Of a stretch of DNA of 64,000 nt, positions 3,220-49,412 are shown in pieces. A program made the translations under genes and the position numbers. The number at the start of each line of letters is the position of its first letter. Position 1 is the stretch's first letter. Under the pieces are notes generated by a model, which was not told where the DNA came from, searched no databases, and saw nothing but the letters and a program-made list of their open reading frames with translations. Source of the DNA: a virus; the IMG/VR virus record IMGVR_UViG_3300034103_001746, positions 32,001-96,000 of that record; one strand, written 5' to 3'.

Positions 3220-3220
3220 T

Positions 3221-26350: not shown

Positions 26351-26653
26351 ATGTATGATCCAGATCGTTTACGTTTTTATATGGAAAAAAGAATTCAAAC
26401 AACCATGATAGGTGCCTTAGCTCGCATAGAGGATAGTTTAGGGTTTTTGTGGGGACAAGATAAAGACCCAAATATCCCACTAACCCCAGAAGAAGAAAAG
26501 TTTGCAGATATCTGGGACTATTTGCGTAACGATATTTTAAATTACGGAAATAAACAAATACGACAACTTAAGGATGATTTTCATAAATATGGCGGCATCT
26601 TTAAAAGCACTTACCAATACAACTTCCCCGTTAAAAAGGATAATGACAAATGA
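26351..26653 (+). CDS. Hypothetical protein (100 aa)
   Basis: ORF in tight operon with TTMIGALARIE..GFLWG and RNDILNYGN motifs. Confidence 0.7.
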   Translation: MYDPDRLRFYMEKRIQTTMIGALARIEDSLGFLWGQDKDPNIPLTPEEEKFADIWDYLRNDILNYGNKQIRQLKDDFHKYGGIFKSTYQYNFPVKKDNDK

Positions 26654-27610: not shown

Positions 27611-30600
27611 ATGTCTAGAGGATTTAATTTAACAGCAGAAATCAATCTTCGTGGACCCGCAAATATTCGTACTGTTGTTGCGGATATTAGGCGTCAATTA
27701 GGCACTATTACGGCAGATGTGAATGTTAGAGTTAGTCCTAATGCCACAAGAAATATTACAGCTATTAATCAGGCTCTTAGTAGATTAAATACAACCTTAA
27801 GCGATACCAATAGATTAGCTACACAAGCTACTACCACACTAAATGGGCTTGCTAACGCTGGTCGGCAAGTATCTACTAGTTTATCTAACTTGCCGCGCAC
27901 TATTCAAAACTCAGCCTCTGCCGTTACACAGCTAAATAACAGAACAAACCAAGCTGCTCAAAATTTACAGGTCGCTAGAACAGAATTTGAAGAATTCGGC
28001 AGACAATCGGCTTTGGCCGTTAGAAGATTTGCTGCTTTTGCTACGGTAACCGGAGCAATATTTAAAGTAAGCAATGCGATTAGCTCCGCATCAGCAGAAT
28101 TTGTAGCATTTAATAAAGAATTAGTTAGAGTAGCTCAAGTTACAGACACGTCTGTATCTAATCTTGGTGGATTAGTTAAAGAAATTACATCTTTGTCTAC
28201 TAGATTTGGAGTAGCGTCTAAGGAATTAATACAAGTATCTAGCACATTAGCACAAGCTGGTTTAAGCGCTAGAGATACAGAGAAAGCTCTTCAGGCATTA
28301 GCTCTTAGTGCTATGGCTCCGTCGTTTGATAGCTTAAACGATACCGTAGAAGGTAGTATTGCATTGATGAGACAGTTTAATATTGGGGCTAAAGATTTAG
28401 AAAAGGCTTTAGGTTCTGTAAATGCTGTTTCTGCTAAGTTTGCTGTAGAAGCTAGTGATATTATCACAGCCATACAGCGCACAGGTGGTGTGTTTGCGGC
28501 TGCTAGTAGAGGCGTTAGCGAAGGTACTGATGCTCTCAATCAATTTATTGCAGTATTTACTAGTGTGCGAGCCACAACTCGTGAAAGCGCTGAAACTATT
28601 GCTACTGGTTTAAGAACTATTTTTACGCGTATTCAAAGATCAGGCACAATTGATGCATTAAAAGAATATGGTGTTGTATTAACAGATTTACAAGGCAAGT
28701 TCGTTGGACCATATGAAGCTGTTCGTAAATTAGCAGAAGGCTTGAATCAATTAGATCCAAGAGATTTAAGATTCTCAAGAATTGTAGAAGAACTTGGTGG
28801 TTTCCGTCAGATTGGCAAAGTGATTCCACTTATTCAACAATTCGCAACGGCGCAACAAGCATTAATAGTGGCTCAAAAAGGACAAGGCTCTTTAGCTAAT
28901 GACGCGGCTACGGCTCAACAAGCATTGGCTGTTAAAATTTCAAAAGTTAGAGAAGAATTTATAGCATTAATTAGAAGCGTTGGTCAAAGCGATAGTTTTC
29001 AAAATTTTGTTAAATTAAGTTTAGATTTAGCTAGTGCTTTAATAAAAGTAGCAGATTCAGCAAAAGGCGTGCTCCCTGCTTTAACAGCAATTGCCGCTAT
29101 TAGAGGAGTTAGTTTTCTTACACAATTTTCTAGGGGTTTTGCTGGAGGTTTACGTCGCCAGAATAGCGGTGGTCCAGTAAGAGGATTTGCGTCTGGCGGC
29201 TTGGTTCCTGGTGTTGGGAATGGAGATACTGTTCCCGCCATGCTTACACCAGGAGAATTTGTTATTAGAAAAAAAGCCGTAGAAACCATTGGTACTGAAA
29301 ATTTAGCTAAAATGAATAGAGGAGGCAATGTTCAGAAATTTGGTATGGGTAGGGGCGTTAAAGGTCGTAGAGGCGCTCGTAGTCGTTTTAAAGAACTTAC
29401 TTCGGAAGAAATGGATAGTTTAAGCACCCCCGATCTTATCAAATACGGCAAGGCATTAGCTAGAGATATATTTAGCACTGGAGGAGCAGGATTAGTTACT
29501 AGTAGTAAGTTCATTCCTGTTCCACAAGAAAGAATAACACCAGAACTTGAACCGCATTTGCAGAATTATCTTGGTAAAAAGGGCTATTGGAAACCAGAAG
29601 TGTCTAAATTCGGCAGGATGGATGAAACCAAAATATCCAAACAAAAAAATAAATTATCACGAGAAGAAGCGCTTAAAAAACAAGAATCACGACTATCAGA
29701 TGAAGTTGCTGCACGAGCACAACAATGGACTAAAATTAGAACTGGATCATCTATTGATAATTATTTATTATCTGTATTGAAAGATCCAATTTTAACTGAT
29801 TATAAAACAGCTCGTAGCGGAAGTAGTTTATCTAAACCATTCCATAACACTAGACTAAGACAAGAAGTTAATAAAGCATTAGAACAATTTGATGATTTTG
29901 ATTATAGCGCTGGTAATATTGATAAATTAGTCTCCAGTTTCGCTGCTAAAAAATTTGCAGATGGTGGTATGGTTCAAAAATTTATGGCTGGTACATTTGT
30001 CAAAAAAATACAACCTAAGAATAAACAACCTAAAATTTTAACAAAACTTCAAGAACAACTATTATCTAATGTAGAGAGTTTGGGTGGCCCTAGCAGAGTT
30101 GGTCAATTAGCATTCAATGCTCTCAATGATATAGATAGAAGAGCATATTCAGTATCATATCCTAAAGATATTCAAAATATAGTTAAATCAAATAGTATTA
30201 AGTCCGCTAGTCCGACAATACTAGATAAAATTCAATATTTTGTATCTAAGGCTAAAGAAAATATAGCCAAAACCAAAGAACAAGAGTCTCAGAAACAAAA
30301 TAAAATTGACGAGCAAATTAAATCTAATAACTATTTAGAGTTTGCCATTGCTGGCCTAAGACAAGGCGGCGGGTTTCCAAGTGCAATAACTGAGATTACA
30401 CCAGAAACCCAGCAAACAGTTAAATTATATAGTGGTTCATTAAATAATCGACAAGGTAAAAAAATAGAAAGAAAATTATTTCAAGATTTTCGTAACACAA
30501 TCGCTAAGATTGCAAGTAGTTTATCTAGTACTATTAATGCTCAACCTAACTTAAATTTATTAGATCAATCAATTAATAATTCTGGATTTTCTAATGTAGT

Positions 30601-33600
30601 AGGTTCCGCACTAGAATCTGTGATAGGTGTTATCGGTGCCCCTTATGTACAAAAAACCGAAGAAAGTAAATCTATTGACTTTCGAGAAGGATTAGGATCA
30701 GCGGCAAAATTATTTGGTTTGCCTAAATCAAATATACCTACTGATGTTACTAGAACTCTTGGTGGCAACGGTAAAAGTCTTAATGATATGATTGGCCAAA
30801 TCGATAGATATTTAAAAAATTATAAAAAATTTCCAGTTAAAAAAGCATTAGGTGGATTGATACAGGAGTTTGCTCAAGGAGGATCCCCTGAAGATACTGT
30901 TCCAGCGCTATTAACTCCAGGCGAGTTTGTTATTAACAAGAAGGCTGCCGCTAGAATAGGATCCGCCACACTTCATAAATTAAATCATGCTGATAAAGTA
31001 CAAGGATTTAATAGAGGTGGTCCAGTTGGAGGGGTTTATAGATTTGCTAGAGGTGGATCAGCACCAGGAGACTATACTGCTAATATAGAAGGAGCAGTAC
31101 AAAGAGCGTTTCAAGATTTTGATGGTTTTATGAAAACTTTTGGCGATATGGTAAGTAGTAGAAGAGATGCTTTATATAAGCAAAATCGTAGATCAGGTAT
31201 GTCAGCAAGTGATGCTAAACAAAGTGCTGATATTCAAGCAAGAGGAGAAGGTGCTCAGTATTTAGCTGATAGAGGCATTATCAGACAAGGAGTGGCAACC
31301 GGATTAGGTAGAACATTGAATCCATCTGGTCCAGAAGCTCAGGCTGGGGCTAGATTTATTGTTCAAAGCATGCAAAAAGCCGCACAAGCTTCACAACAAG
31401 TGGCTCAAAATTCTAGCAAGACAGCTGGGTTTTTTGATAAATTAAAATCTACAGCATCATCAGCTGCCACTTCTATCGGTGGATTTTTAGGCAGATTCAG
31501 AGGTGGCAATCTTACTCCGGAAGAAAGACAAGCTAAACAAAATAGAAGAATGGCAATTGCAAACGCTGGTATGGCAGCCACATTTGCTTTACCTATGTTA
31601 GCAGATCAATTGGGTGGTTCTATTGGTGGTAAAACCGGCGCTGGTATTGCTGGTGCAGCCACGGGTTTCGGTACCGCTGTTGGTATAGGTTCTCAATTTG
31701 GTCCTTATGGAGCTTTGGCTGGAGCTATCGCCGGTACTGTTATGGCTATTGATGGATATAATCAAGGTATTATTCAGAGAGAAAAAGAAATCAGTGAAAA
31801 GAAAATCGAGACAGAAAGCAAAACAGCTGATACATCTTTACAAAACTTAGAAAAAAACCCCAATAATATAGCCGCAACATCAGCCGTAGTGAACAGTATA
31901 CAAAGGATGGCCACGGAAGAAGATAAGATTATGTCTAATAATCGAGAGTTGAGAAAGCCCACAACTCTACAAACTGTGGGATCTTATCTATCGTTTGGTT
32001 ACTATAAACCAGGACAACAAAGTAATGAAGAGATTGGCCAACAAAATACTGCTGCAAATAGAGCCGCTTCGGATGCTGCTATGCAACTATTAACAACCAA
32101 AGTTAATAGTGGTATGGGATTTGATGCTGCTTTAGCGTCAACTGGTAATGCGGCACTAATAAAAGAACAAATTGCTCAAGGTGTTGGTGGAGAGTTTGCT
32201 ACAAAAGACGCTTCTTTACGAGAAACAAGAGCTAAATTTGCCGGAAAAACAGACTCCACCAGCAAAGAAATAGTTGCTCAATTAGATCAAAATATAAAAG
32301 CTAATGCTGATGCTGCTTTTGCTTCTGCTACGGCTGGTCTTAAAGCTGCGGACGCTGATATACAGAGAGCCAAGGCCGCTCAAAAAGTGGCAAAAGCATT
32401 AAATTTAGCTAGCGTTAGTATTGATCGTACATTCTCTAATATGGAGTCTGCGATTAGTAAAGCTAGCGCCCAGTTAGAAATGTCCGGTGAAGACTTAGAT
32501 GCTATTGCTAGTGGAAGAATTTCTACCAAAACCAGATTCTCGCAGCAAAATGTACTAGAAAACCCAAATGCTTATTCTAGCGCAGAGAGAAGCGCTGCTG
32601 TTAAACAAGCTGGTAATGTTTTTGGACAAGACTTTGCTTTTGTTAGCAAATTAACAGATGTTGGTAATAATATTAAGAATACTATGACTCGTATGGGTGT
32701 TGAGGCTCAACAATCTGGCAAACCAAAAGAAATGGTTGCGGAAGAAATTCAAAGAACAGTAGATAAACAACTTAGAGATGCTTTTGGAGATAATAATTTA
32801 AGTAGACAAATTAGCGAACAACTTAAATTAGCATTACAAAACCAATTAGTGGATAAAGAATCTAAAGAAATAGATCTTGATAAGTTAATGGCCGAGACTA
32901 CAGGTTTAACTAACTTATTAGAATCTGAGAAAAAAGCGTACAAAGCATTAGCCGATGCTGCTAAGTTAGCTACAGATTCTATAAATCAATATAGTGATCA
33001 AATAGATAAAGCTAATGCTATGCTTAATGAAGTTAATGGCATGAGAGGCGATGCTATTGCTACTAAAGCATCTAATGACTTTAGACTTACAGAGGTTTTA
33101 GGTGGCAAAGTCTCATTAAGAGATAGATTTGGAGCAAGATTAGAAGAAGGAGCCGCAAGAGCTGGTGTCAAAGCTAATCAATTTAATTTACCAAGCCTAC
33201 AAAACAGATTAACACAACTGTCTACCAATATTAATGCAACTAATAATGCTAAAAATAATTTTCAACAAAATAACGCTATTACAGATCCTAAAACAATACA
33301 AGGTGTAGCTAATTTTAATAGAACTATTAGCTCATTAAACAACGATATTGAAAATACTAAAAGAGCTATTAAAGATTTACCAAAAGATATTCAAGGATTT
33401 ATAGATGATACTTTTAATGAATTACAAAAGAAAGTTAGTGATTTTGAAACCAAACAACAGGCCGGAGCATCTTTTGGAGAAAAATTAGTCACAAGTACCC
33501 CACAAGAATTATTGGATTTAAATAATACATATACTTTAGTTAATAATACATTAAATGGCCAAGTTAGAACCATTCAACAGTCCATATCTGCACAACAGGC

Positions 33601-36600
33601 TTATGCTAAAGTTATAAACGATGGTGGCAATGCTGTGGATGCTATGAGCGCTGCTCAAAATGCTTTTGCCGGTGAAAATAGAGCAGCCTTTAGTATGTTT
33701 AGTGAATTAATTAGTGTGGCTGGTATAGAAAAGCCTCAAGCCAATCAAATGAGAGCGGATTTCCTTGAAAACATGGCTAAGTCTCAAGGAATGAATTTAC
33801 AAAATAACCCACTATTAAATTCTATTGTCGCGAATTTAAGAAAAGAACCGGGTGAAGATCCAGAAATTAAAAAACTTAGAACTCTTTATCAAGATTTACA
33901 AAAGGCTCAACAAGATGCTGCCGACGCAGCTAGAACAATGGTTGTTGATGATGCTACTAAGCTTATTAATGCTGCTGGAATCGCAGTAACTAAAGCTATT
34001 GAAACTGCTAGAATTAGCTTTAATGAACAACAATTAAATGATGTTGGGCTAGGTATTAGTAGACCATCTCAAGTCATGAATAAGTCTGAGGGCGGTGTTG
34101 TTTATGCTAGTAATGGTAAATTTATACCAAAAGGTACAGACACAGTACCAGCAATGCTAACACCAGGAGAGTTTGTTGTTAATGCTAAAGCTGCTAGTAG
34201 TCATTTACCATTATTAAATGCTATTAATAAATCTAAGGGTGGTGTTATACAGTATTTATCTGCTGGTAGTGATAATCCTGTTGGATATACAGGATCACCA
34301 ATGGATAGATATAGATTAGCTCGTCAGATGTTCGGTCCCTCTCATAGAATTACTCTTAGAGAAGGTGCTGCTGCTGGTTTAAATCTCAATAGTCTTGGTA
34401 ATCAAATAGATCCCTATTTAGCAGATCCGAATCGTGGTAGAGTATCTCAAGCACAAGCAGATGCAATTATAGACGATCATAATCGTAGCGCTAGACAGTA
34501 TAGTTTAGATAATGATTTTGTAAATCAAAAACCAACTCCATCAACACCTAAATCAAGCAGACCAAGTTTAGGACAAAGAGTACGAGAGGGTTTTAATTAT
34601 GGAATGGGGGCTATTAGAAATGGTGCTTCTGCTGTTGGTGAATATTTAGGAGACATGGGTAGATTTGCTAATAGACCATATGCCGATGCCGATGCTGCCG
34701 AAGGCATAATGAGTGGCTTGTGGAGAACAGGAGTAAGAGTTGTTAGAGGTATTGGTTATGCTGGGGTTACAGGAACAACAGGATTGGGTCGTGTTGCAAG
34801 TTCTTCGAATTTAGGTGGTGGTTTAGCCACAGCTGGTGCTGGTATGGCTGTTGATTTTGCTCTCGGACAAGCCGGTGTTTCAGAGGGTGCTAGAAGTTTG
34901 GTGGGTGCTAGCATAGATGCTGGTAGTACACTACAACAAGGCACTCAAATAGGTATGGGCGCTGCCGCTTCTGCTAGAATTTTAGCAGAGCTTGGTATTC
35001 AATCAGCGTATGAGATTGGTAGTGCCATTTATGATAATAAAGCTTATGTAAATAAAAAACGAGAAGAAGGTGATGCTCAACAACAAGCCAGAAATGATTA
35101 TGGTGTTGTTGGAGGTGTTAGCAGCAATATTCTAGGTAATATTTTTGGAACAGATGCTAGTATATATAGACCGGGAACATGGATTCCAGGCAGAGGTATT
35201 CCTGCTGCCATAGGTAGACTAGTGCAAACTGTTAACGACACCGAAACTGCGCAAAAAGCAGCGGTAAATTCTCAGAAGGCCGTAGAAGCAAAACAAGCAG
35301 AGATGAATTCTAAGTATGAAATGAAAATGACAGATGGACAAACTAGAGCACTTGGTGTTCAGGGTGAACAATGGGTAAGAAGAAGGACAGAACTAGAGAT
35401 GGAAAGAGCGACTCTGGGTGAGGCTGAATACAATGCGCGTTTAGCTAATCTAGAAGCTGATAGAAATGCTGTAAATGTTCAAAAGGGTTGGTTTAGTAAT
35501 ACAACCACTCGTAGAATGAGCGCTAGTAATGCTGATTTAAATTATGCATACCAACAAAACTATAGAACAGCACAAGATAATCAAAAACAACAAAATGCAG
35601 CAGAAACAGCCAGAAGAGATGCAGAAGCGCAAAAACAAAGAGAAGAAGCTGAAAGAAAAGCTAAAGAAATAGAAACACAACAACAGCAAACTCAACAAAC
35701 TATGACAGCAATTGGTAATGGAACAATAGCTTTATGGAATAATGCTGTTAATGCATATAATCAAGGAGTACAACAAAAACAAGAAGCAGACACTAGAGCA
35801 TTAGCTGGTAGGGACGCTAGCAGATTTTTAACCAATCCTGCTTCCCCAGCATTAATCACAGACATGAATAAATTAGGGGCAGAGAGAGCAGCAAAGCTAG
35901 CAGAACTAGCAAAGACTCCGCTTTCTGATCCTATGACACCTGAACAAAAGAGGCTTCAAGATGAGATATATGGTATTAATCAAAGAATAGTTGATTCTAA
36001 TCGCGCCATATTTGCCAAAAGCAGCAATAAAGAACTACAAGACGAATGGGCACAATATAATAAGATGCAAGATAGAGCCGCTAAAAAGGCCGCAATTGAA
36101 CAAGTTAAGCAAAAGAAATTACAACAAACTCAAGCTATTAATAAAGAACTTAAGCTTAGAGAAACACTTTCTAAGGCTACGGGTTTGTCCGTTCCTCAAG
36201 ATCCTGAAAAATTAGCCAATTGGAGAGATAAAGTTCTCAAGAAGATTCAAGATAAATTCTATTTAAGCGGAGATACCGCCAAAGATATAGAATTAATGAC
36301 CTCATACGGTATGAGTCCAGATTTAGCAAAAACAATTCTACGGCCAATGACAGATGCTCAAAAATCTGCTGTATATGATATTATGGCTAGTCAAACCCAA
36401 GGAGGCGTTGCTAAATATAGTGATAATGATCTTAAACTATTAAAAATGAGCGAAGAAGAAATTGTCAAACAAAGAGCTACTGCAACAGAACAATATGGTG
36501 GAGAACGTCAGTCTTTAGCCATTAAAAATGAATCACGTAGACAAAAACTTGAAAGAGCTAGAGAAAAAGAGTTCGGTAAAGCTGTTAAACAAATGGGTAG

Positions 36601-37897
36601 ATTTAACGCTTTAGCACAAAAAGGTATGAGTGGTTCACCAGGACAACAAAGAGCTATTCAAAGTAATTTATTTAAGAAACTATCTAAGGCAGGATATATT
36701 GACCCATCGTTGAGCGCAGAAGAAAATACTCAAAAATTATCCGCTTTAAATATGGGTCAAACAGCTTCTTTCCTATATCCAAATCAAGCTGGTGGTATGT
36801 TAGCAATGAAAAAATCTCGCGGAGGCATAATTTATGCTGCTAAGGGTCAGCTAATTAATTTTCAGCCACAAGGCACGGATACTGTTCCTGCTATGTTAAC
36901 ACCAGGAGAGTTTGTGGTTAATGCAAAAGCCACCCAAGCACATCTTCCATTATTAAAGGCTATTAATAAACAAAGAGGAGGCCATATTGGATATTATGAT
37001 GCTGGTGGCACAGTAGAGTCATCATTATTAAGAAATCAGCAATCTGTTGCTAACGTGTCCAATAGACAAGATCAAACACTGCGTTCAATATATAGTCAAA
37101 CTAATTCTATTAATAGAAAAACATCCTCAATAGATAATAGTAATTCAGCAATAGAGCAGAATATTCAAGAAAATTATAATAGTACTAATAAAGATCTTGG
37201 TAGATTACAGTCTACGGCCGCTAAAACTCTTGACTCTTCTGAATCTACAAGAATGGATCTACAAAATACTGGATATATTAATAGGTTTAATAAAGGTGGT
37301 GTGGTATATGCCGCTAATGGAATGCTAATACCTTATCAGCCAAAAGGCACTGACACTGTTCCAGCAATGCTAACGCCCGGGGAATTTGTAATAAATAGAA
37401 ACGCAACTGCTAAAAATTTACCATTACTTCAAGCTATTAATAATGGCGGTACATCATTTATGGCCAGGGGTGGTCAAGTAAATTATATGGCTGGTGGTGG
37501 ATTATTGGGTCAAATTTTAACTCCAATGTTTAATTCTTTTGTTTTATTAAATGAGTCTATCAAACAAAGCATTAAGGCGTTACAAGATTATCAAAGACAA
37601 TTAGCATCAACACAGCCAAATAGTGTATCTACTAATGGTGGCGCTGGACAGCTTGCTGGTCTAGATGGATTAGGCCAGTTTGTAGTAAAATTTGATCAAT
37701 TTATTGCCGCAGTAAATGCGATCAACTTACCACCAGTTATTAGTTTACAAGTAGCACCAATACAAGTAAATATTACAGGAGCAGAAGCATTGACTCAAGC
37801 ACTACAAGGACCAATGGGAGAAATGCTAACCAAGCAAATTAGTTCAGCATTCGGTAGACTATCTGCGGCTACAGAAGGAGCATTACAAGTAGGTTAA
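27611..37897 (+). CDS. Tail tape measure protein (3428 aa), modular
   Basis: Has a TP901-family TMP domain at about aa 150-420 (FNKELVRVAQVT...LAQAG...RESAETIATGLRTIFTRI), Ala/Gln-rich helical composition and hydrophobic Gly-rich segments. It lies downstream of the tube and chaperone genes. Confidence 0.9.
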   Translation: MSRGFNLTAEINLRGPANIRTVVADIRRQLGTITADVNVRVSPNATRNITAINQALSRLNTTLSDTNRLATQATTTLNGLANAGRQVSTSLSNLPRTIQNSASAVTQLNNRTNQAAQNLQVARTEFEEFGRQSALAVRRFAAFATVTGAIFKVSNAISSASAEFVAFNKELVRVAQVTDTSVSNLGGLVKEITSLSTRFGVASKELIQVSSTLAQAGLSARDTEKALQALALSAMAPSFDSLNDTVEGSIALMRQFNIGAKDLEKALGSVNAVSAKFAVEASDIITAIQRTGGVFAAASRGVSEGTDALNQFIAVFTSVRATTRESAETIATGLRTIFTRIQRSGTIDALKEYGVVLTDLQGKFVGPYEAVRKLAEGLNQLDPRDLRFSRIVEELGGFRQIGKVIPLIQQFATAQQALIVAQKGQGSLANDAATAQQALAVKISKVREEFIALIRSVGQSDSFQNFVKLSLDLASALIKVADSAKGVLPALTAIAAIRGVSFLTQFSRGFAGGLRRQNSGGPVRGFASGGLVPGVGNGDTVPAMLTPGEFVIRKKAVETIGTENLAKMNRGGNVQKFGMGRGVKGRRGARSRFKELTSEEMDSLSTPDLIKYGKALARDIFSTGGAGLVTSSKFIPVPQERITPELEPHLQNYLGKKGYWKPEVSKFGRMDETKISKQKNKLSREEALKKQESRLSDEVAARAQQWTKIRTGSSIDNYLLSVLKDPILTDYKTARSGSSLSKPFHNTRLRQEVNKALEQFDDFDYSAGNIDKLVSSFAAKKFADGGMVQKFMAGTFVKKIQPKNKQPKILTKLQEQLLSNVESLGGPSRVGQLAFNALNDIDRRAYSVSYPKDIQNIVKSNSIKSASPTILDKIQYFVSKAKENIAKTKEQESQKQNKIDEQIKSNNYLEFAIAGLRQGGGFPSAITEITPETQQTVKLYSGSLNNRQGKKIERKLFQDFRNTIAKIASSLSSTINAQPNLNLLDQSINNSGFSNVVGSALESVIGVIGAPYVQKTEESKSIDFREGLGSAAKLFGLPKSNIPTDVTRTLGGNGKSLNDMIGQIDRYLKNYKKFPVKKALGGLIQEFAQGGSPEDTVPALLTPGEFVINKKAAARIGSATLHKLNHADKVQGFNRGGPVGGVYRFARGGSAPGDYTANIEGAVQRAFQDFDGFMKTFGDMVSSRRDALYKQNRRSGMSASDAKQSADIQARGEGAQYLADRGIIRQGVATGLGRTLNPSGPEAQAGARFIVQSMQKAAQASQQVAQNSSKTAGFFDKLKSTASSAATSIGGFLGRFRGGNLTPEERQAKQNRRMAIANAGMAATFALPMLADQLGGSIGGKTGAGIAGAATGFGTAVGIGSQFGPYGALAGAIAGTVMAIDGYNQGIIQREKEISEKKIETESKTADTSLQNLEKNPNNIAATSAVVNSIQRMATEEDKIMSNNRELRKPTTLQTVGSYLSFGYYKPGQQSNEEIGQQNTAANRAASDAAMQLLTTKVNSGMGFDAALASTGNAALIKEQIAQGVGGEFATKDASLRETRAKFAGKTDSTSKEIVAQLDQNIKANADAAFASATAGLKAADADIQRAKAAQKVAKALNLASVSIDRTFSNMESAISKASAQLEMSGEDLDAIASGRISTKTRFSQQNVLENPNAYSSAERSAAVKQAGNVFGQDFAFVSKLTDVGNNIKNTMTRMGVEAQQSGKPKEMVAEEIQRTVDKQLRDAFGDNNLSRQISEQLKLALQNQLVDKESKEIDLDKLMAETTGLTNLLESEKKAYKALADAAKLATDSINQYSDQIDKANAMLNEVNGMRGDAIATKASNDFRLTEVLGGKVSLRDRFGARLEEGAARAGVKANQFNLPSLQNRLTQLSTNINATNNAKNNFQQNNAITDPKTIQGVANFNRTISSLNNDIENTKRAIKDLPKDIQGFIDDTFNELQKKVSDFETKQQAGASFGEKLVTSTPQELLDLNNTYTLVNNTLNGQVRTIQQSISAQQAYAKVINDGGNAVDAMSAAQNAFAGENRAAFSMFSELISVAGIEKPQANQMRADFLENMAKSQGMNLQNNPLLNSIVANLRKEPGEDPEIKKLRTLYQDLQKAQQDAADAARTMVVDDATKLINAAGIAVTKAIETARISFNEQQLNDVGLGISRPSQVMNKSEGGVVYASNGKFIPKGTDTVPAMLTPGEFVVNAKAASSHLPLLNAINKSKGGVIQYLSAGSDNPVGYTGSPMDRYRLARQMFGPSHRITLREGAAAGLNLNSLGNQIDPYLADPNRGRVSQAQADAIIDDHNRSARQYSLDNDFVNQKPTPSTPKSSRPSLGQRVREGFNYGMGAIRNGASAVGEYLGDMGRFANRPYADADAAEGIMSGLWRTGVRVVRGIGYAGVTGTTGLGRVASSSNLGGGLATAGAGMAVDFALGQAGVSEGARSLVGASIDAGSTLQQGTQIGMGAAASARILAELGIQSAYEIGSAIYDNKAYVNKKREEGDAQQQARNDYGVVGGVSSNILGNIFGTDASIYRPGTWIPGRGIPAAIGRLVQTVNDTETAQKAAVNSQKAVEAKQAEMNSKYEMKMTDGQTRALGVQGEQWVRRRTELEMERATLGEAEYNARLANLEADRNAVNVQKGWFSNTTTRRMSASNADLNYAYQQNYRTAQDNQKQQNAAETARRDAEAQKQREEAERKAKEIETQQQQTQQTMTAIGNGTIALWNNAVNAYNQGVQQKQEADTRALAGRDASRFLTNPASPALITDMNKLGAERAAKLAELAKTPLSDPMTPEQKRLQDEIYGINQRIVDSNRAIFAKSSNKELQDEWAQYNKMQDRAAKKAAIEQVKQKKLQQTQAINKELKLRETLSKATGLSVPQDPEKLANWRDKVLKKIQDKFYLSGDTAKDIELMTSYGMSPDLAKTILRPMTDAQKSAVYDIMASQTQGGVAKYSDNDLKLLKMSEEEIVKQRATATEQYGGERQSLAIKNESRRQKLERAREKEFGKAVKQMGRFNALAQKGMSGSPGQQRAIQSNLFKKLSKAGYIDPSLSAEENTQKLSALNMGQTASFLYPNQAGGMLAMKKSRGGIIYAAKGQLINFQPQGTDTVPAMLTPGEFVVNAKATQAHLPLLKAINKQRGGHIGYYDAGGTVESSLLRNQQSVANVSNRQDQTLRSIYSQTNSINRKTSSIDNSNSAIEQNIQENYNSTNKDLGRLQSTAAKTLDSSESTRMDLQNTGYINRFNKGGVVYAANGMLIPYQPKGTDTVPAMLTPGEFVINRNATAKNLPLLQAINNGGTSFMARGGQVNYMAGGGLLGQILTPMFNSFVLLNESIKQSIKALQDYQRQLASTQPNSVSTNGGAGQLAGLDGLGQFVVKFDQFIAAVNAINLPPVISLQVAPIQVNITGAEALTQALQGPMGEMLTKQISSAFGRLSAATEGALQVG
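29225..37390 (+). repeat. Five dispersed DTVPA(M/L)LTPGEFV repeats within the TMP
   Basis: Copies start at 29225, 30893, 34139, 36878 and 37352. The peptide is nearly invariant while synonymous sites have diverged. Confidence 0.95.
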
Positions 37898-37922: not shown

Positions 37923-40900
37923 ATGAGCCAAAATATTACCACAGAAACATTGTATATTGGTACTGGTGTTCCATATAATAATATTATATCAGCATCTGGT
38001 GGCACCAATACTGTTTTTAATCAAAATAAACTAAATATAGACTTTGAAGTTAGAGGCACAGGTAATTATGCTTCTTTGTATTATGATGCTTCTACTGGTA
38101 GATTAGGCATAGGCACAGGACTCCCCGATGCTGTGCTTCACGTTATTGCTCCGTGCGCTAAAGATGGATTAATAGTAGAAAGTATCACAAATTGTCCTAC
38201 TGGAGTAACTTTATTATTAGTTCATAATCCACAGACCCCACCACAAACTGGTAGTTATCCAGCTATGATTACATTAGCTGGTCGTGATACCAACTATAAT
38301 GAAATTGCTTATGGTCAAATCAAATCCAGAATTTTAAGTCCTGTTACATCCGCAACTAGTGGAGAAATTTTATTTTTAGTTGATCATACAGGAGTAGCTA
38401 AAGAAGTTTTTGTAGCAGGTTTGACCAATTTAGTTTTAGGGGCTAATAATAGTGTGTCTGGTTTTTCTTATGAAGTATTGGGTCATAAGAATATCGGATC
38501 TGGAAATTATTATCTCACTATAGGATCAAATAACTCTGGATCATTAATGACTAATTCATTAAATATTGGTAATGATAATATCTTACGTGGACCTCAGATA
38601 TTTGCCATATCTAATGATTCTGTATTAAATGGTAGTGGGTTGTTTGTTCTTGGACTAGATAATACTGTTTCTGGTAATAACTCTGTTTTCTGCGGATCCG
38701 CTATATATGCAACAGGATCCAATAGCTTATTTGTTGCTAATAATAGTATAGTGCGAGGAAGCTACGGGGTCGGACTGGTGCAAAATGCTATGGTATCAGG
38801 ATTATCTGGTGTTATTTTAGGTACAAATTCTTTTGTTTCTGGTAATAATAATATCGCTATAGGTAATGACAATGCAATCGTTGGTAGTTCAACAAATGCT
38901 ATAGGTTCTTCCGTAGTCAGTTCTGGTAATAGAAATGTGGTTTTTGGTAATGATGTATTTTTGAGCGGACATAATTTAATTGCTATAGGTTCTAATCAAA
39001 TTGCATCCGGAATTAATAACGGTATTTTTATTGGTAATGATTTTGATCTTTTAAACACAGAGAATGTTCTTTATGTTGGTTTTAACAATACTACCGAGTC
39101 CGGATTAGTAAACAGTGTAGTGTTGGGTGCCAATAATGATTTAGATAATGGCTCTTTATCTAATGTTATTCTATTAGGTCAATATAATCTTACTAAAGAT
39201 ATATATAATTCAGTTATTATAGGCAATACTAATAATACCAGTGGAACATTAAAAAATAATATTTTAATTGGTAGTGGAAATGCCTTGATAGCGAATAATT
39301 ACAATAATATATTTTTAGGAGCACTAAACAATCAAACTGGAGTTTATATTAACTCTCAGGGTGAGGTTAGTGGTAACGCCAGAGCTATTAATGCCAATAA
39401 TACTAACTCAATATCTATTGGCACCAATAATTTATCAACCCTTAGTAATTCTAACGTGTTTGTTGGTAATAAAAATATAGTATCCGGGTTGAATGTTAGC
39501 GTTCTTGGATCATTCAATAATACCAGAAATACCAACAGAGTTTATATACTTGGTAATTCTAATTATGTTGAAGGTGAAAATCTTATTATTCTAGGTAAAA
39601 ATATTCTTGCCCTAGGCAAAGATATCATTGGGATGAACAATACGAATAGTCCTATGGATATTTATGGTAGTGGCTCTGTGTCTATTGGTAACAATACAGT
39701 TGTTTGCAGTGGTATAGCAGTCGGTTATGGTAATAATATGAATGGTGTTTCTGGTTTAATCTATGGTAAAAATAATACCTTGGGATTAGCCAAGCATATG
39801 TTCACTTTTTCTACTATCACACCATCTCAGTTAAATATTAATGGATTAGTTGGGGCGTTTTATAAAGCAAATGACGAAGTATTAGTACAGGTTAAAAATC
39901 CAGCTGGGACAGATAATTTATATAAATTTCAATTAAATTCTGTAGTAGAAGACGTATTTAATACTACTACGACACTAAATCTTGGTGGTGTTATTAATAC
40001 TGCTGGATTATCTAATAGATACTATGCTATTAATAATTCTTTTGATGATAATAATAACCCAACGATTACTGGTAGTGGTATCGTTATAGCCTTAAAGAAT
40101 TATGAAGAGTCCAAATTTTATGGCTCTAATAATATAGTTGTTGGAAGTACGAACACCGTAAGATACAGCGATAGTATCATTATCGGTAATAAAAACGTAT
40201 CTTCAGGAAATAATAGTATAGTTATTGGTCATAATATTAGTGGTGTTAATGATGGAGCCGTACATATTGGTACATCCAATGCGAATAAATTAATATTAGA
40301 TAATGAGCAAATAGTTATTAATAGCGGTACTGTACAAGAAAAAATAGTTATTCGTGGATATAATGGTAATATAGTAGAGTATCATGATTTAATTAATTCT
40401 AGACTAGGTATTAATAATACAGTTCCAAGATCAAGTTTAGATGTTAGTGGCACGGTTACAGCCGAAGCTTTTAGAATGGGCTTATCTACCACTAGCGGTT
40501 CTGTATTAACAGCTAATTCTAGTGGTATAGCTTCTTGGGTATTGCCAGTTAATTTATCTGGTACAAACCAAGGTTTATTATTTAGAGTGAGTGATAAAGT
40601 AGCTAGTGGTATTGATAGTATTAGATATGTTAGTGCCAGCACCGGTATTAATTTTTATGATAATATCTATATATTAAGAAATTCCGGTATCATAATAAAT
40701 GCTGATAAAGGTAGTAATATTTTACCAGTTAATTTTACGATTTGGGGATCTGGTGCAGCGTTTGCTCCTAAACTTTTAGAGGTAATTCCCGGACAAAACA
40801 TTACTAATTTTTATCAATTTACAGCAGATTCTGGTTCGCTTACTGGATTATCTGTTAACACAGCACTAAATGTTCCTAGAAGCTTAACTGGTACATTTTT

Positions 40901-42191
40901 ATATGCTACAACTGGAGGTAATTTATTAAGTCAAACTGTTTATCCTCATAATGTATTATTTAGTAGTTCTAATTCTTGGGCTAGTGGTAGTACCAAGTTT
41001 AGATGGGTAGACTCACAATCAACACTAGTGTTGGGTCCAACATCGGGATTAGTTTCTACAACTATTTCTACTAATCCTATTGATACCACATATAACATTG
41101 TTCTAAGTTCAGATTCTACTATTAATACATCATTTAATAATAGGGGTTTATCAAATGTATTTTCAGTTTATAGATCTGGTGATGCTGGAACCGCTAGTAG
41201 ACAAGGATTCCACATTTTACCAAACAGCGGACAAGTTGGTATCAACACTACTACTGGTACAATCCTCGGTAGTGATGCTTCCTTATATGTTAATGGTAAA
41301 ATAGCCACTAATGGATTAAAACTTTTAACAAACCCCGCCACCGGCCTGTATTTAAGAACAACGTCTAATGGAGATATTATTACTGGTGGTTTAGATATAT
41401 CTGTTGGTTTTAGTGGCTCGTATCCTATGAGAGCCACAACCAATAATGTCACTAATGTGGTCACTATAGATATTAATCCGCTCAAACCTAATGGGTCTTC
41501 TTATGAAGTATCAGAGTATGGTAGAACTTTAGTTCATAATGGAACAAATTGGACAGTTGGTTCTGGATTACAAGTATGGCAAGATACTAATGGTAATGGC
41601 ATTAAAGGATTATCATTAGGATATGGAACATCTTTAGGGGGATCAGATGATGGTAATCCAAATTCCTACAATGGAATAGTATCTGCTGGCGGATCTTTTA
41701 ATTTGGGTAGTCCTCTTAAACGAGGATCATCACAATTTAGTCAATTCTTCTTAAGAACTAGATCTTCTGATACTAATCAAACACCATATTTAACCATGGA
41801 TTGGCAAACCACCAATGCAACAGCTCGTAGTTCTAGTAACACTATCAAATTCCCCGCTGCTAAACACGGCGTTTGGACATATACAGCATATGTAAATGTT
41901 CTTTGGGCAGATAACTTAGGAAATAATAAGGGCGCTGGAGGATATATTTTACAAGGCACTATAGCTAATATAGATAATACTATTACTCAAGTTGGTAGTG
42001 GAACCATTATTAAGAATGTAACTAATACAACGCCGGCAAATAATGTGTCTATAGAATTAAATACATATGGTGGATTTAATGCAATGGATCTTAGAGCATC
42101 TGGTGTGGCTGGATACGTAATGTTGTGGTCTGCAACAGTTAATCTGAATCAGCTTCATTGGTCAACATCAGAAGCCTTTACGGCCACATAA
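37923..42191 (+). CDS. Tail fibre/adhesin with YadA-head-like repeats (1422 aa)
   Basis: A long run of ~14-aa (I/V)G..N...G.N...repeats (~38430-39790), GRLGIGT..P fibre motifs and a C-terminal beta-sandwich ending WSATVNLNQL. Confidence 0.75.
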   Translation: MSQNITTETLYIGTGVPYNNIISASGGTNTVFNQNKLNIDFEVRGTGNYASLYYDASTGRLGIGTGLPDAVLHVIAPCAKDGLIVESITNCPTGVTLLLVHNPQTPPQTGSYPAMITLAGRDTNYNEIAYGQIKSRILSPVTSATSGEILFLVDHTGVAKEVFVAGLTNLVLGANNSVSGFSYEVLGHKNIGSGNYYLTIGSNNSGSLMTNSLNIGNDNILRGPQIFAISNDSVLNGSGLFVLGLDNTVSGNNSVFCGSAIYATGSNSLFVANNSIVRGSYGVGLVQNAMVSGLSGVILGTNSFVSGNNNIAIGNDNAIVGSSTNAIGSSVVSSGNRNVVFGNDVFLSGHNLIAIGSNQIASGINNGIFIGNDFDLLNTENVLYVGFNNTTESGLVNSVVLGANNDLDNGSLSNVILLGQYNLTKDIYNSVIIGNTNNTSGTLKNNILIGSGNALIANNYNNIFLGALNNQTGVYINSQGEVSGNARAINANNTNSISIGTNNLSTLSNSNVFVGNKNIVSGLNVSVLGSFNNTRNTNRVYILGNSNYVEGENLIILGKNILALGKDIIGMNNTNSPMDIYGSGSVSIGNNTVVCSGIAVGYGNNMNGVSGLIYGKNNTLGLAKHMFTFSTITPSQLNINGLVGAFYKANDEVLVQVKNPAGTDNLYKFQLNSVVEDVFNTTTTLNLGGVINTAGLSNRYYAINNSFDDNNNPTITGSGIVIALKNYEESKFYGSNNIVVGSTNTVRYSDSIIIGNKNVSSGNNSIVIGHNISGVNDGAVHIGTSNANKLILDNEQIVINSGTVQEKIVIRGYNGNIVEYHDLINSRLGINNTVPRSSLDVSGTVTAEAFRMGLSTTSGSVLTANSSGIASWVLPVNLSGTNQGLLFRVSDKVASGIDSIRYVSASTGINFYDNIYILRNSGIIINADKGSNILPVNFTIWGSGAAFAPKLLEVIPGQNITNFYQFTADSGSLTGLSVNTALNVPRSLTGTFLYATTGGNLLSQTVYPHNVLFSSSNSWASGSTKFRWVDSQSTLVLGPTSGLVSTTISTNPIDTTYNIVLSSDSTINTSFNNRGLSNVFSVYRSGDAGTASRQGFHILPNSGQVGINTTTGTILGSDASLYVNGKIATNGLKLLTNPATGLYLRTTSNGDIITGGLDISVGFSGSYPMRATTNNVTNVVTIDINPLKPNGSSYEVSEYGRTLVHNGTNWTVGSGLQVWQDTNGNGIKGLSLGYGTSLGGSDDGNPNSYNGIVSAGGSFNLGSPLKRGSSQFSQFFLRTRSSDTNQTPYLTMDWQTTNATARSSSNTIKFPAAKHGVWTYTAYVNVLWADNLGNNKGAGGYILQGTIANIDNTITQVGSGTIIKNVTNTTPANNVSIELNTYGGFNAMDLRASGVAGYVMLWSATVNLNQLHWSTSEAFTAT

Positions 42192-42229
42192 TAGTAATAA
42201 GGAATTATTTTAATAGGAAAAAATAATAT

Positions 42230-43831
42230 ATGTCATATATTAAATATGGATTATTTAATTTTATAGCAGATAGTGGGTATCCTGTTCCTCAAATATCTAT
42301 TTCTGTTGATCAAGACAGAGATGGTGGTGGTAGGATTATTGGCTCAAAAACTGTTGTTACATTAGAAGGTGTTATATATTCAGCTAGTGGTAGCAGGGGT
42401 TTTGAATCTTTAACATCTAAAGAAAATGGACTCAGAGAAGCTTTTAAATCTGATGGACAAATGCTTCAAATTGGTTGCACCGGTACCGGTGGCTCTAATT
42501 TACCTCCATACTTTTCTGGATATCCAAAAGTTAATAGATATTCAGCAGAAAAAACTGATAATTATTGGGTGAATACTATTAATTATAGCATTGAGCTACA
42601 GATAGAAAGTAGCGGCAATGGTAGTGGTATTTTTGCTGTAACTAGTACTCAAGATGAGTGGAATATAGAAATATTAGACGATACATCTTTTGTGAATAAT
42701 CCAGTAGGGGGTTCTGTACTAAGACAAGCTCTATCGATTCCTGATGGGACTGGTTTTCCAACATATAGAGTAAGCAGAACGTTAGGGGCTGTCGGTAAAT
42801 ATATTCCGACGGGTGGTAATGGTGGCCTGAGCGCAGTAGACAATGCTAAAAAATGGGTTCTATATCAAGCTTCTAGTGGTTTAACTTTAAGTGGAATAAT
42901 TAATGGATTACAATTATATAACTTTACTAGATCGATTAGTGTTAGTGATGTTGATGGGTCTTATAGATTAACAGATAATTGGATTGCTGTACCATCTGGC
43001 GCATTAAGCGGAAATTATGTAGAATCTTATACTGTTGAAAGTTCATTGGATAATAGTTATCTTCGCAGCGTGGTGATCAATGGTACAATTAAAGGATTAG
43101 AACCGTTTAATACTGGAGCAATTTATCAAAACAATACTATTGGATCTGGTATTAGCGGCAGTATATATCCAACTGTAGCCGGTCCTGTAAGAGTAACTAA
43201 TACTAGTAAATTTGATAAAGCTGTTAGTGGGTATTCTGGAGTGAAATCCTTAATTTACAATAGGGCCCAGTCTTTTATAGAAAAACAAAATAATACTTCA
43301 GGTATTTTTAGACGTTTTTTTGGTAGAGACGAAGCTATGCTTAATCCTTTACCATTATCTATAACAGAAGGATATAATCCCACAGAGGGATCTGTAACAT
43401 ATAGTTGGACATTTAATAACAGACCATTAAATTTAGTAAGTGGTTCGATTAGCGAAGTTTTAACAGTTAATGATAATTTTCCAACACAACAAGTAGCAGA
43501 AATTTTTGTACTAGGTAGAAGACTTGGTCCTATATTACAGGATTTGGGTACATATACTACAGCAAGCAGAGATGTAAACTTTGAAGTTGTTATGTTGCGC
43601 CCAACAGGTTTAAATGGATTAAGGTTTCCAAAAACTGCTTATACTGCTATTACAGGTATAGTAGAAACATTTAATCCAGCCTATTTATTTGGTGCTGGTG
43701 GTCAATGCAAATCTTTTGTGAAAAATAATACTGAAAATTGGAGCGTATCAGAAGGTAGATTTGTTAAAACTAAAGGTTGGTCATGGACAAAATGTGATGA
43801 TATTCCTGGAACAAATCCCAATGTGGGATAA
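42230..43831 (+). CDS. Putative distal tail/hub protein
   Basis: 533 aa and beta-rich, with repeated (I/V)(N/T)YS..(L/F) strands as in tube-fold hub proteins. It lies downstream of the TMP. Confidence 0.45.
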   Translation: MSYIKYGLFNFIADSGYPVPQISISVDQDRDGGGRIIGSKTVVTLEGVIYSASGSRGFESLTSKENGLREAFKSDGQMLQIGCTGTGGSNLPPYFSGYPKVNRYSAEKTDNYWVNTINYSIELQIESSGNGSGIFAVTSTQDEWNIEILDDTSFVNNPVGGSVLRQALSIPDGTGFPTYRVSRTLGAVGKYIPTGGNGGLSAVDNAKKWVLYQASSGLTLSGIINGLQLYNFTRSISVSDVDGSYRLTDNWIAVPSGALSGNYVESYTVESSLDNSYLRSVVINGTIKGLEPFNTGAIYQNNTIGSGISGSIYPTVAGPVRVTNTSKFDKAVSGYSGVKSLIYNRAQSFIEKQNNTSGIFRRFFGRDEAMLNPLPLSITEGYNPTEGSVTYSWTFNNRPLNLVSGSISEVLTVNDNFPTQQVAEIFVLGRRLGPILQDLGTYTTASRDVNFEVVMLRPTGLNGLRFPKTAYTAITGIVETFNPAYLFGAGGQCKSFVKNNTENWSVSEGRFVKTKGWSWTKCDDIPGTNPNVG

Positions 43832-43843
43832 TGAGGAGTGTAA

Positions 43844-46800
43844 ATGGCATACTGTAATTTACCGGAAAAAATAGTAGGACCATACAACCAAGTATTGTTT
43901 TTAGGTTGTAGTGTTACTAGTTTTAATTGTAATTTAGGCTGGGGAGCAGAACAAAGTACTCTTAATGTAAATCTAGTAGAAGATAAATGTTTTCATCCAC
44001 AATCTAATGAGTATAGTCCAGTTGATGTTAAATTAAATACATTAGTACAACAAGATGATAATATAGAGGGTGGAACGGCATTTAAGAAAAAAGCAGATGA
44101 CTCGTATGAAACATTAGATCCAACAAAAGCTCTTCATAAGAATATTGCTTTTCAAATGAAGGGTCTCGAAGATGCTAGAGATCAAGAAAATATAGAGTTA
44201 TCACCAGAATTTAAAGATTATGGCAAATTATGTTATGATATTAATGGCAATAGAGTATACTGGAGAGATCCAGATCCTATGTTTATAGGACTTTCTGGAG
44301 CATTTCATCCTAGTGGCTTAGATATTTTAGGTACTCCAGTAAGATTTAAATTTAATAATTTTAGTTTTGGCGGGTTGGTTTCTTCTTGGAAACAAAATGG
44401 TTCTCAAGGAGGTTCTCGTTCTTTTGAAGTTGAGATCAAAAGTTTTGCTAGTCTCTTAAATGGTTGTCAATTAATAGTTAGTAAATATGCTGGTACAGTT
44501 TGTGGCATTGTACCTAACACTAATATTCCTACAAATCCTATTGATAAAAACATAGCAATGCCGATGCCATATAACATAGATAATACAACCACTCCTCCCA
44601 CGTTTTATTTTTTTGATCATAGAGCTTCCATAGAACAAGGTAACATTCCCAATGTTTTTAATATATTTGGATATCTAGAATATTTAGGATACAAAGATAA
44701 AATATATGGTAATGCTGGAGTGACTGATGAGGGTATTAGGGCTCAATATATTTATGATGCTTTAATTACACTATTGAGTCCAAATAATGAAAATCATGTA
44801 GATAATAAAGGTCCTTTTTCTCCTTATGGGGCTATAATATCTCGCTCAGTTAGGGTCAACGGCACGTCTGATCAAATCGATCCATTAAATCTTATATTAA
44901 ATGCTTTTGATGGTGGACAAATTAATTTAACACACATGGGGATATGTCCTAATTCTGTAGCCATAGATAATTATCGTAGATGTCGTTTAAAACTGGATTT
45001 ATCTGAGGTGCCAAGACCACCAAAGTGGTTAAGGATGCAAGGGCCAGTAATCAGTCTGATGCAGTTTATTACTGAAATTTGTGACGGGACTGGTTTTGAC
45101 TTTTTTATTGATTTTATATATCCTACAACCGAACAAATTCAGCAAAATATTTCTGGTACCATTAAAATACGTACTGTTTCTAGGAGAAAACAACCAAAGA
45201 AGGATCAAATTGAAAAATTAATTGAATATTTAACTAATAATGGGGGAGTTTCTTCTTATACTAAAGGCAAAGAATTTACTGATGTTAATACCAGAACAAT
45301 GTATGTTGGAGGAAAACAAAAAAGATTATTGCAATTAAAATGTACACGATTAGCATTCAAGCAAAATACTTTGATATATGATCCTTGGGCTAATAATGGC
45401 AATGGGGCGATGATCAATTATGATCAACTACCTGCTGTCGGGTCTACTCCTAATCAATTAAGAATGCCAAATACATCATCTACTAGAAGATACTCTTTTA
45501 AATATATTGGTGGAGCTGCTGTTGCTAGCGAATCAGCGACATTCGATAATTCGGTTAATTTTGTTAATGCTGCGGATTCTAGACATATATCACAGGGTAA
45601 CTATTATCCTGCGGTTAATCTAGCGGAGGCTCAGGGGTTTTTGGGTAGTATTGGTCCGATAGGAAAAAACATAGAGTTATATAAAGATACCATATGTCCT
45701 TATTTTGGTGTTGGATCTAACGGATTAATACGTCAAGTATATTTTGATAAAAATATGGGTCAAATGCAAATTATTTTTCAAACAGCTGATGTACAACAAT
45801 TAACATCTCTTCCATTGTCTAACTATAATCCATATTCAGCAGCGGGTCAAGTTACGGGCACCACATCTAGTAGTCCAATATTTTTAGTTTTGGAAAATGA
45901 ACTTAGAGCTGCTGCTGGAGGATTTAAATCTTGGCTAGATTACTGTTTTGGCAATTTGTTTACTACAGATATCGCAGAAATTTTATATAAAGGATTTCGT
46001 GATAAATACGGATTTGGTTTTATTCCTAATGGATCTGTAGCCATGTTTGCTAATCTAAAAAACGAGTTTTTAACAGGCATCAGTTTGATTCACGCTAAAG
46101 CATCTCAAAAAACAATTATTCGTAACGGAAGACCTATGCAAGTTAATCTTTCTGATTTAGCTCCTCATTTTAAAGCTTTGTATAAAGACTTAGAAAATAT
46201 TCATCAATTTTTTCAAAATGTTGCTAACGAGCATTATGGTAAACAATTTATGATTAGAATACCAGAGTTAGCATGGTATAGGGATTTATCTACTGCTTAT
46301 GATAACAATAACCAGCCCATCATTTTAGACTATGATGAGGATGGATATCCAATTTATGCTGTAGAAGGCACAGGCAAAGTTTTTACAAATTATTCTATAT
46401 CTACAGATGGGGCATGGGAGGAACCAGGAAATTTTATAGATGACGCTCTAGTTGTTGGAGGAACAAGAGTTTCAGCCATGTCTGACGATTCAGGTAAAAT
46501 TCCTTGTATATTAGGCTATAATGCTTCATTAGAGAAAGATTATTCTAGACAGTGGAATAGGCAACAGTTTTTAGCAGCTTTATCAGTAAGAAGATTTAGT
46601 GATGTATCGTTTAATTGTGTTACAGACTGGGCGTTTGTCTTACAAAATATGTTGAGCGATCCAGATTTACAGGACGCTAATCATTATTTTATGTCATTGA
46701 GACATAGTTTACCTCCAGAAGAATATTCTTTGCTATCTTATATCGCGCCCGCCGTTCCTTTTACTACCGCACATGGATTAACTATTCCAGATGATAGTAA

Positions 46801-47767: not shown

Positions 47768-47778
47768 TAGGATTGAAT

Positions 47779-49410: not shown

Positions 49411-49412
49411 TT

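Follow-up and report, generated by a model that had tools for sequence, protein, structure and literature searches.

A giant phage tape measure protein in which a repeated, ancient module marks apparent joints for exchangeable folded domains

Introduction

Tape measure proteins are usually seen as passive rulers that carry at most one lytic domain. Those of siphophages are ejected ahead of the DNA (PMC10038345, PMC12617516), and there are known examples of domains embedded in tape measure proteins, of processing of these proteins and of polyvalent proteins that are injected. In phage lambda, gpH matures to gpH* and gpHC by a cut in a Gly-rich region whose exact site and catalyst are not known; residues ~690-817 of gpHC are unresolved, and residues 818-849 bind gpI in the tail tip (PMC12617516). 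The T5 protein pb2 is cut after R1127 during tail assembly, between a hydrophobic stretch and a peptidase domain, and is metastable in the tube (PMC10038345). Gp96 of Thermus phage P23-45 is a 5,002-amino-acid (aa) tape measure protein fused to the virion RNA polymerase (PMC10770324). The polyvalent proteins of phages and conjugative elements carry shuffled effector domains, frequently together with metallopeptidases, and the paper that describes them makes no mention of tape measure proteins (Iyer et al. 2017, PMC5512222). Here we analyze a 64,000-nucleotide stretch of viral DNA, called the window below, which comprises bases 32001-96000 of the 149.5-kb virus record IMGVR_UViG_3300034103_001746, a record rated complete. 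It encodes a tape measure protein of 3428 aa in which one module of about 70 aa occurs five times, with folded segments between some of the copies.

Results

Five copies of one module in a tape measure protein

The single open reading frame (ORF) that carries the modules (Table 1) is a phage tape measure protein gene as judged from its family matches and gene order. PF10145 (PhageMin_Tail) matches aa 191-384 with an E-value of 3e-22 and 79.8 bits against a cut-off of 33.2, and in the PHROG collection the ORF is assigned to families 28, 167 and 4211, all of tape measure proteins. SPbeta-like phages and Enterocloster phages have tape measure genes that tblastn matches over aa ~45-550, and the gene order around the ORF is that found in the contig of a relative, P0002. 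Nothing among 50,697 phage records matched the gene by Megablast, and a search for related loci in viral contigs gave no confirmed relative.

An initial annotation of the window had reported five near-identical DTVPA(M/L)LTPGEFV cores in this protein. All five are exact, at nucleotides (nt) 29225, 30893, 34139, 36878 and 37352 of the window, with a chance expectation of 2e-12 for the 12 fixed core residues. The xxGG motifs described on either side do bracket every core, and the half-module KFADGGMVQKFMAG that had been placed at nt 29954 is indeed there. Resemblance around each core spans ~65-80 aa, with E-values between copies of 3e-15 to 8e-31, and follows the pattern xxGG-(V/I)-x-(Y/F)-A-x-x-G ... 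G-T-DTVPAMLTPGEFV-(I/V)-N-x-x-A ... LPLL-x-x-IN ... GG-x-V-x-Y-x-x-GG. The copies, numbered M1 to M5, fall into two subtypes, with M1 and M2 in subtype A and M3, M4 and M5 in subtype B. The module was found nowhere else in the 149.5-kb genome, and the segments between modules are unrelated to one another, as had been proposed, with no BLAST similarity at E<=0.01.

Between module copies, identity is 0.29-0.57 at codon position 3 and 0.54-0.93 at the first two positions, and the copies share exact nucleotide matches of 19 nt at most. Because synonymous sites are saturated while the module peptide is kept, it is the peptide and not the DNA that is under selection, which agrees with the reading given in the initial annotation. 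The copies are old, and they are maintained by selection on the peptide rather than by gene conversion. Across 524 modules, residues D27, L33, G36, E37 and N56 are 100% conserved, and A13, G16, A31, V39 and L52 are conserved at more than 99.6%; at least 14 invariant residues are retained in every copy. Such invariance argues against both recombination scars and passive linkers, and it suggests that the module is recognised by a conserved partner or has a chemistry of its own. Moreover, the nearest counterpart of a given module in other proteins is almost always the module at the same position (M1, 78 of 78; M2, 49 of 49; M3, 82 of 92; middle modules, 120 of 135; last module, 72 of 93), and this positional orthology indicates that the array predates the divergence of the family. 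Comparison of a module profile with PDB sequences returned only rows at chance level, and no account of the module turned up when the literature was searched in full text for the core peptide.

Spread of the module family

A length-matched search yielded more than 1,400 relatives of 1,885-5,999 aa, and the comparisons below use 120 of these that were fetched. Each of the 120 carries between two and eight modules, at 62-66% identity to those in the window. In these relatives the first module begins close to aa 517, and a median of 131-134 aa separates the last one from the C-terminus. When a profile of 26 modules was run against 1.84 billion cluster representatives, it matched 21,264 proteins at E<=1e-3, of which 1,165 remained at E<=1e-30, including arrays of up to 12 copies and proteins of up to 7,872 aa. 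The multi-copy array is a trait of a large and essentially uncultured group that extends well beyond the phage represented by the window.

Cultured phages of Gordonia, Mycobacterium, Ralstonia, Rhizobium, Paracoccus and Pseudanabaena have the module in their tape measure proteins, at a single place per record. A profile of the 524 modules also matches lambda gpH at aa 751-785 (hmmsearch, one-sequence test, E 3.9e-7). Both observations bear out the earlier statement that a single C-proximal motif occurs in other tape measure proteins and that gpH undergoes maturation. The profile match shows the ~70-aa module to be a multiplied form of the single conserved C-proximal element of lambda gpH.

The total length of the relatives ranges from ~2,200 to 7,900 aa and is driven by variable slots. 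Across 104 relatives the spacing between M2 and M3 is stable, with a median of 1095 aa (about 1,000 aa in the window), and the M1-M2 slot varies from ~0 to 1,700 aa and the region after M3 from 0 to 2,900 aa. The length of the latter region correlates with total length (r = 0.93).

Exchange of segments between modules

The closest relative, P0002, is 90% identical to the tape measure protein of the window up to aa 573, unrelated over aa 574-1086, and 73% identical from aa 1087 onward. Both of these breakpoints are located inside modules, the first in M1 and the second in M2. In another relative, P0012, identity is 87% over the stretch that runs from aa 3229 to the C-terminus and 51-55% elsewhere. 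The slot between M1 and M2 holds two segments in the window, S1a and S1b, joined by the half-module. S1a is missing from the three closest relatives, and it is present at 60-74% identity in 10-11 of the 120 relatives, whose backbones are either 24-30% identical to that of the window or not detectably similar to it. In every carrier S1a is fenced by GGxVQxF...RGxR upstream and by K-FAxGGxVQxF downstream, and the carriers diverge after the downstream fence. In P0053, S1a follows a segment similar to S1b, which is the reverse of the order seen here. These comparisons show that the module and its short form (F/Y)AxGGxVQxF serve as joints where folded accessory domains are inserted and traded between phages.

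The basic stretch G(R)GVKGRRGAR|S that precedes S1a (window 29345-29385, aa ~579-592) is kept in 10 of 10 carriers and is reminiscent of the cut that T5 pb2 undergoes at an Arg, R1127.

The initial annotation had asked, as a check, whether segments vary in presence, order and identity while the modules persist; it had inferred that the tail lumen carries several separately released cargo proteins, and had added that the modules could serve as recombination points. The first expectation fits aa 591-780, 2224-2560 and 3138-3220, which vary in presence and identity (and, in P0053, in order), and fails for the backbone, which is colinear. The second does not extend to the same backbone, since about half of the protein (aa 1-512, 1156-2153 and 3303-3428) is conserved and colinear and not cargo. 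The third does not apply within the gene, where copies share at most 19 nt of identity, and does apply between phages, whose breakpoints lie in modules.

Among the other segments, S2 contains a Gly/Ala-rich hydrophobic stretch at about aa 1314-1400, as judged by hydropathy. The variable part of S3, S3a, is 15% Gly and occurs in 9 of the 120 relatives, and the partly conserved part, S3b, occurs in 34. Of the S4 residues, 53% are Q, N, S or T. The C-terminal tail, S5, may dock in the tail tip by likeness to residues 818-849 of lambda gpH (PMC12617516).

Predicted folds and possible functions of the inserts

The segment between M1 and M2 is predicted to be folded, and not to be the plain extended helix that the initial annotation had named as a refutation of its proposal. 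An AlphaFold2 (AF2) model of aa 586-1075, built from a 26-row alignment, has a mean predicted local distance difference test (pLDDT) score of 82.5. In this model S1a is an alpha+beta domain with block pLDDT values of 50-93, S1b is a well-defined alpha/beta domain, and the half-module between them is disordered. The C-terminal ~160 aa of S1b are present in 45 of the 120 relatives at ~36% identity, with E1002, F1035 and D1045 conserved. The pattern GxxLE(1002)...IDF...LF(1035)G.P..IPTD(1045) recurs across 25 relatives (window 30600-30760, aa ~1000-1050). A reading of the S1b E...D...D residues as a PD-(D/E)xK nuclease was set aside: the Lys is not conserved (it is Thr here), and no nuclease fold was matched.

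Among the relatives, the insert of P0011 at aa ~971-1190 (positions 4911-5570 of L003) carries the motifs DxDxT ... TARP ... DDD. When its language-model features in the Atlas were compared with those of stand-alone viral clusters of the HAD-family phosphatases, the scores were 0.93-0.94 with 179-191 shared features, and all ten of the best named matches belong to one clan. On these Atlas features the insert looks like a HAD phosphatase, and the same insert is present in P0005, P0007, P0008 and others. Because the inserts of the window have no recognisable function, the case for cargo is one made from the relatives.

Two further motif families were noticed by eye. A pattern xSTS ... E-x-E-(F)-I-L, reminiscent of ADP-ribosyltransferases, occurs in P0002, P0013, P0020 and P0022 (aa ~640-800) and at positions 5841-6410 of L003, and the xSTS-type insert of P0002 fills the exact slot that S1a occupies here. 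As an enzyme assignment, the ADP-ribosyltransferase-like motif (P0002, P0011, P0013) is a lead only, having no sequence support from Pfam, PHROGs or the PDB. Zincin-like HExxH motifs, seen in 23 of 121 relatives, are likewise leads only, with no such support from Pfam or the PDB.

Genes around the tape measure gene

The tape measure gene is flanked by two small overlapping ORFs upstream and by large ORFs downstream, in the same order as in the relatives, and these neighbors have no match to a named family. The upstream pair overlaps by 4 nt (26650-26653), and equivalent pairs in relatives encode 100 and 292 aa, 105 and 294 aa, and 97 and 288 aa. No family match was obtained for either ORF of the pair; from their position, they are candidate tail assembly chaperones.

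Downstream, five very large ORFs of 1,422, 533, 1,307, 545 and 2,654 aa occupy window positions 37923-57377 (+), and ORFs of the same sizes adjoin the tape measure gene of P0002. The sole family match in this run is to the beta-roll family PF21300, in the first ORF (E 5.5e-7). The run presumably codes for a tail tip that has diverged strongly, with its distal tail, hub and fibre proteins. Upstream of the tail genes is a second giant ORF, of 3,409 aa (window 8069-18298, +); it has no Pfam family and has a weak match to the PHROG tail-fibre family phrog_8443 (E 2e-5, aa 302-389). The 381-aa ORF at 18301-19446 (+), with a weak match to the collagen repeat PF01391 (E 2e-4), is probably a fibre component.

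Table 1. Parts of the tape measure gene and the ORF pair upstream of it (window coordinates; relatives are the 120 fetched proteins)
Feature	Position	Strand	Basis or occurrence
Tape measure protein gene (P0001), 3428 aa	27611..37897	+	Single ORF, PF10145, PHROG families, gene order
Two overlapping ORFs, 100 aa and 291 aa	26351..27525	+	Directly upstream, tail assembly chaperone position
S0, conserved N-terminal region with PF10145 (aa 1-512)	27611..29146	+	118/120 relatives, median 66% identity
Module M1 (aa 513-590, core 539), subtype A	29147..29380	+	P0002 breakpoint aa 573 inside
Cassette S1a (aa 591-781), rare mobile segment	29381..29953	+	~10/120 relatives, 60-74% identity
Half-module KFADGGMVQKFMAG (aa 782-794), S1a/S1b joint	29954..29992	+	pLDDT <50, AF2 model residues 200-220
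Cassette S1b (aa 795-1072), predicted folded alpha/beta domain	29993..30826	+	pLDDT mostly >90
Module M2 (aa 1073-1155, core 1095), subtype A	30827..31075	+	P0002 similarity resumes at aa 1087, inside
S2, conserved backbone (aa 1156-2153)	31076..34069	+	aa 1501-2153 in 110/120 relatives, ~30% identity
Module M3 (aa 2154-2223, core 2177), subtype B	34070..34279	+	Core and module similarity
S3 (aa 2224-3062): variable Gly-rich 2224-2560 (S3a), partly conserved 2561-3062 (S3b)	34280..36796	+	
Module M4 (aa 3063-3137, core 3090), subtype B	36797..37021	+	Core and module similarity
S4 (aa 3138-3220), short Q/N/S/T-rich spacer	37022..37270	+	P0002 and P0003 only
Module M5 (aa 3221-3302, core 3248), subtype B, last module	37271..37516	+	Core and module similarity
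S5, C-terminal tail (aa 3303-3428) and stop codon	37517..37897	+	72/120 relatives

Discussion

The explanation that we regard as best, and as somewhat probable, is that the protein is an ancient tape measure scaffold in which the modules are joints for the exchange of folded domains that ride to the host. Its layout is an N-terminal PF10145 region, M1, a variable slot, M2, a conserved backbone, M3, a semi-variable region, M4, a spacer, M5 and a C-terminal tail. The joints would be flexible linkers, recognised by a partner, that let extra folded domains ride through the tail tube. The tape measure protein would be threaded through the tube and ejected ahead of the DNA, and the inserts would travel along with it. 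If so, the accessory domains, of which there are two here (aa 591-1072), would reach the host envelope or cytoplasm in the manner of the P23-45 polymerase.

Several observations weigh against this explanation. No effector or enzyme family was found in the tape measure protein by Pfam, PHROGs or NCBIfam. Among 12 relatives, Pfam identified PF10145 only. When Pfam was applied to P0002 and P0005 at E<=1, and the PHROGs to P0002 and P0011, the outcome was tape measure families plus sporadic weak matches. No known fold was found for the M1-M2 inserts in the PDB, BFVD or the Atlas. Specifically, the model of aa 586-1075 gave no Foldseek match to the PDB at E<=0.001, no match in BFVD, a best Z of 5.8 on helical pieces in a wide VIA-align search, and template modeling (TM) scores of at most 0.24, normalised by the model, in an Atlas shape search, and an Atlas feature search with aa 591-1072 reached an uninformative best score of 0.80. 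Stand-alone homologues of S1a or S1b were not found within the limits of a word-index search, and lacking these, the inserts may be structural domains specific to tape measure proteins rather than cargo.

The evidence on the modules as joints is also not entirely uniform. While 62% of the 663 ends that lie inside the protein, counted for similarity blocks 150 aa or longer, fall within modules plus or minus 15 aa, versus 16% expected from length, this clustering is partly due to the modules being conserved islands and so is descriptive only. The breakpoint with P0003, at aa 2461-2468, is within S3 and not at a module. An AF2 monomer of M4 from a 26-row alignment reached a pLDDT of 56 with one helix only, and was unusable for a fold search. 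Finally, the 795-nm tail and 3,404-aa tape measure protein of Nodularia phage vB_NpeS-2AV2 (2AV2) are compatible with giant module-bearing proteins being nothing other than very long rulers.

This last point leads to the strongest alternative, in which the modules are periodic elements for self-association, chaperone binding or tube anchoring, and all segments set tail length with none acting as an effector. We consider it unlikely overall, even though much of what was found would suit it. The copies are ancient and position-specific, as would be expected for fixed parts of a scaffold; the first and last modules keep a constant distance from the termini; and the M2-M3 length is conserved. The 2AV2 phage and Mic1, which has a 400-nm tail and no ORF above 2,572 aa, both fit a full-length ruler, and since a 3,404-aa module-bearing protein goes with a 795-nm tail, length alone does not imply cargo. 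Should all 3,428 aa of the protein in the window set tail length, the tail would measure roughly 500-800 nm. The inserts of the window also have neither stand-alone homologues nor an enzyme signature. However, the relatives differ in length through their variable slots, inserts are exchanged horizontally between distant backbones, and at least one insert of a relative looks like a HAD phosphatase; together, these facts are hard to square with a purely structural role. It is also the case that compact alpha/beta domains would add little length per residue.

A second alternative is that each module, or the GG motif beside it, is cut in an assembly-dependent manner, such that about six polypeptides would be released one by one. 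The module is homologous to the part of gpH directly after its Gly-rich cut region (PMC12617516), the joints are predicted to be disordered and hence accessible, and the complete conservation of D, E and N in 524 modules exceeds what a passive linker needs, which fits an element for recognition or self-processing. Nevertheless, lambda gpH does not conserve the invariant D and N, and its cut is positioned upstream of the part that is homologous. No protease was found: domain searches of the genome for Prok-JAB and NlpC/P60 gave none, and the tape measure protein has no HExxH motif, no Cys, nine His and no match to a peptidase family. In addition, the short module-rich proteins P0170 and P0231 lie at contig ends, and so give no indication that the gene is ever divided at a joint. 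We judge proteolytic release at the modules to be improbable. A particular form of this idea, in which the module is a self-catalysed processing element acting through its invariant Asp, Glu and Asn and the giant tape measure proteins are polyproteins traded at the joints, appears doubtful as well. The parallel with lambda makes cutting at the joints plausible as such, although a purely structural role for them is at least as likely.

It is very improbable that the extra modules are mere recombination scars that were carried along with cassettes and are functionless beyond the terminal copy, because the breakpoints between related proteins inside modules that this would account for are outweighed by the 14 or more invariant residues kept in all copies despite saturated synonymous sites, by the positional orthology that marks the copies as old and individually maintained, and by the at most 19 nt of identity between copies within the gene.

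Returning to the explanation that the modules are joints on an ancient scaffold, more than 1,000 uncultured cluster representatives carry multi-copy arrays of this kind, in which folded domains are inserted and traded between fixed ancient joints. If true, the tail lumen would be a further compartment, open to evolution, whose proteins arrive in the host ahead of the DNA, and these arrays would add to the single published case, that of P23-45. Moreover, the joint is the only strongly conserved feature beside the cut region of lambda gpH, where fifty years have brought no explanation of the site and catalyst. Proteins with five to twelve copies each, as in this family, provide a direct handle on the question of gpH cleavage. 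Alternatively, if the giant proteins were polyproteins after all, then the tail lumen would store a train of separately released proteins whose members are exchanged at the joints.

Comparison with known systems

The tape measure protein of 2AV2 (KU230356), at 3,404 aa, is of the same size as the one in the window and comes from a cultured phage whose tail measures 795 nm (PMC6293099). It has two adjacent cores, at aa 1005-1045 and 1079-1111, in contrast to the five spaced cores seen here, and the similarity is limited to the module region (32% over 133 aa). The Nodularia kac phages likewise have two cores.

For carriage of an enzyme in a tape measure protein, P23-45 gp96 is a published precedent. 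It too is a giant tape measure protein from a very long-tailed siphophage, with a folded domain that is thought to enter the host. In gp96, however, the domain is an identified enzyme that occupies the N-terminal part and no repeated joint has been reported, whereas in the window the inserts are internal, are fenced by modules, and include no recognised catalytic domain. No Thermus phage is among the organisms named for the module search. T5 pb2 is similar in that an extra domain is carried in the tape measure protein and is separated by a cut. It differs in having a single peptidoglycan hydrolase domain and a single cut, with no repeated fence motif and no cassette exchange. Polyvalent proteins resemble the system described here in placing variable, shuffled domains, thought to be delivered with the DNA, on one large virion-associated polypeptide; by contrast, none of their recognisable effector domains or metallopeptidases was detected in the tape measure protein of the window.

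Lambda gpH provides the closest comparison for the module itself. Residues 751-785 of gpH (RGEFVFTKEATSRIGVGNLYRLMRGYATGGYVG) align to the module, and a FATGG motif is present just upstream of them, but gpH lacks conservation of the D and N that are invariant in the module. A search of the 149.5-kb genome found no domain of the lambda gpK type (JAB or NlpC/P60). The gpH homologue of the module lies in the unresolved part of gpHC, directly after the Gly-rich cut region, and covers no mapped cleavage site. Thus, an element that occurs once in the 853 aa of gpH is present five times in the 3,428 aa examined here (aa 513-3302), with predicted folded inserts between the copies.

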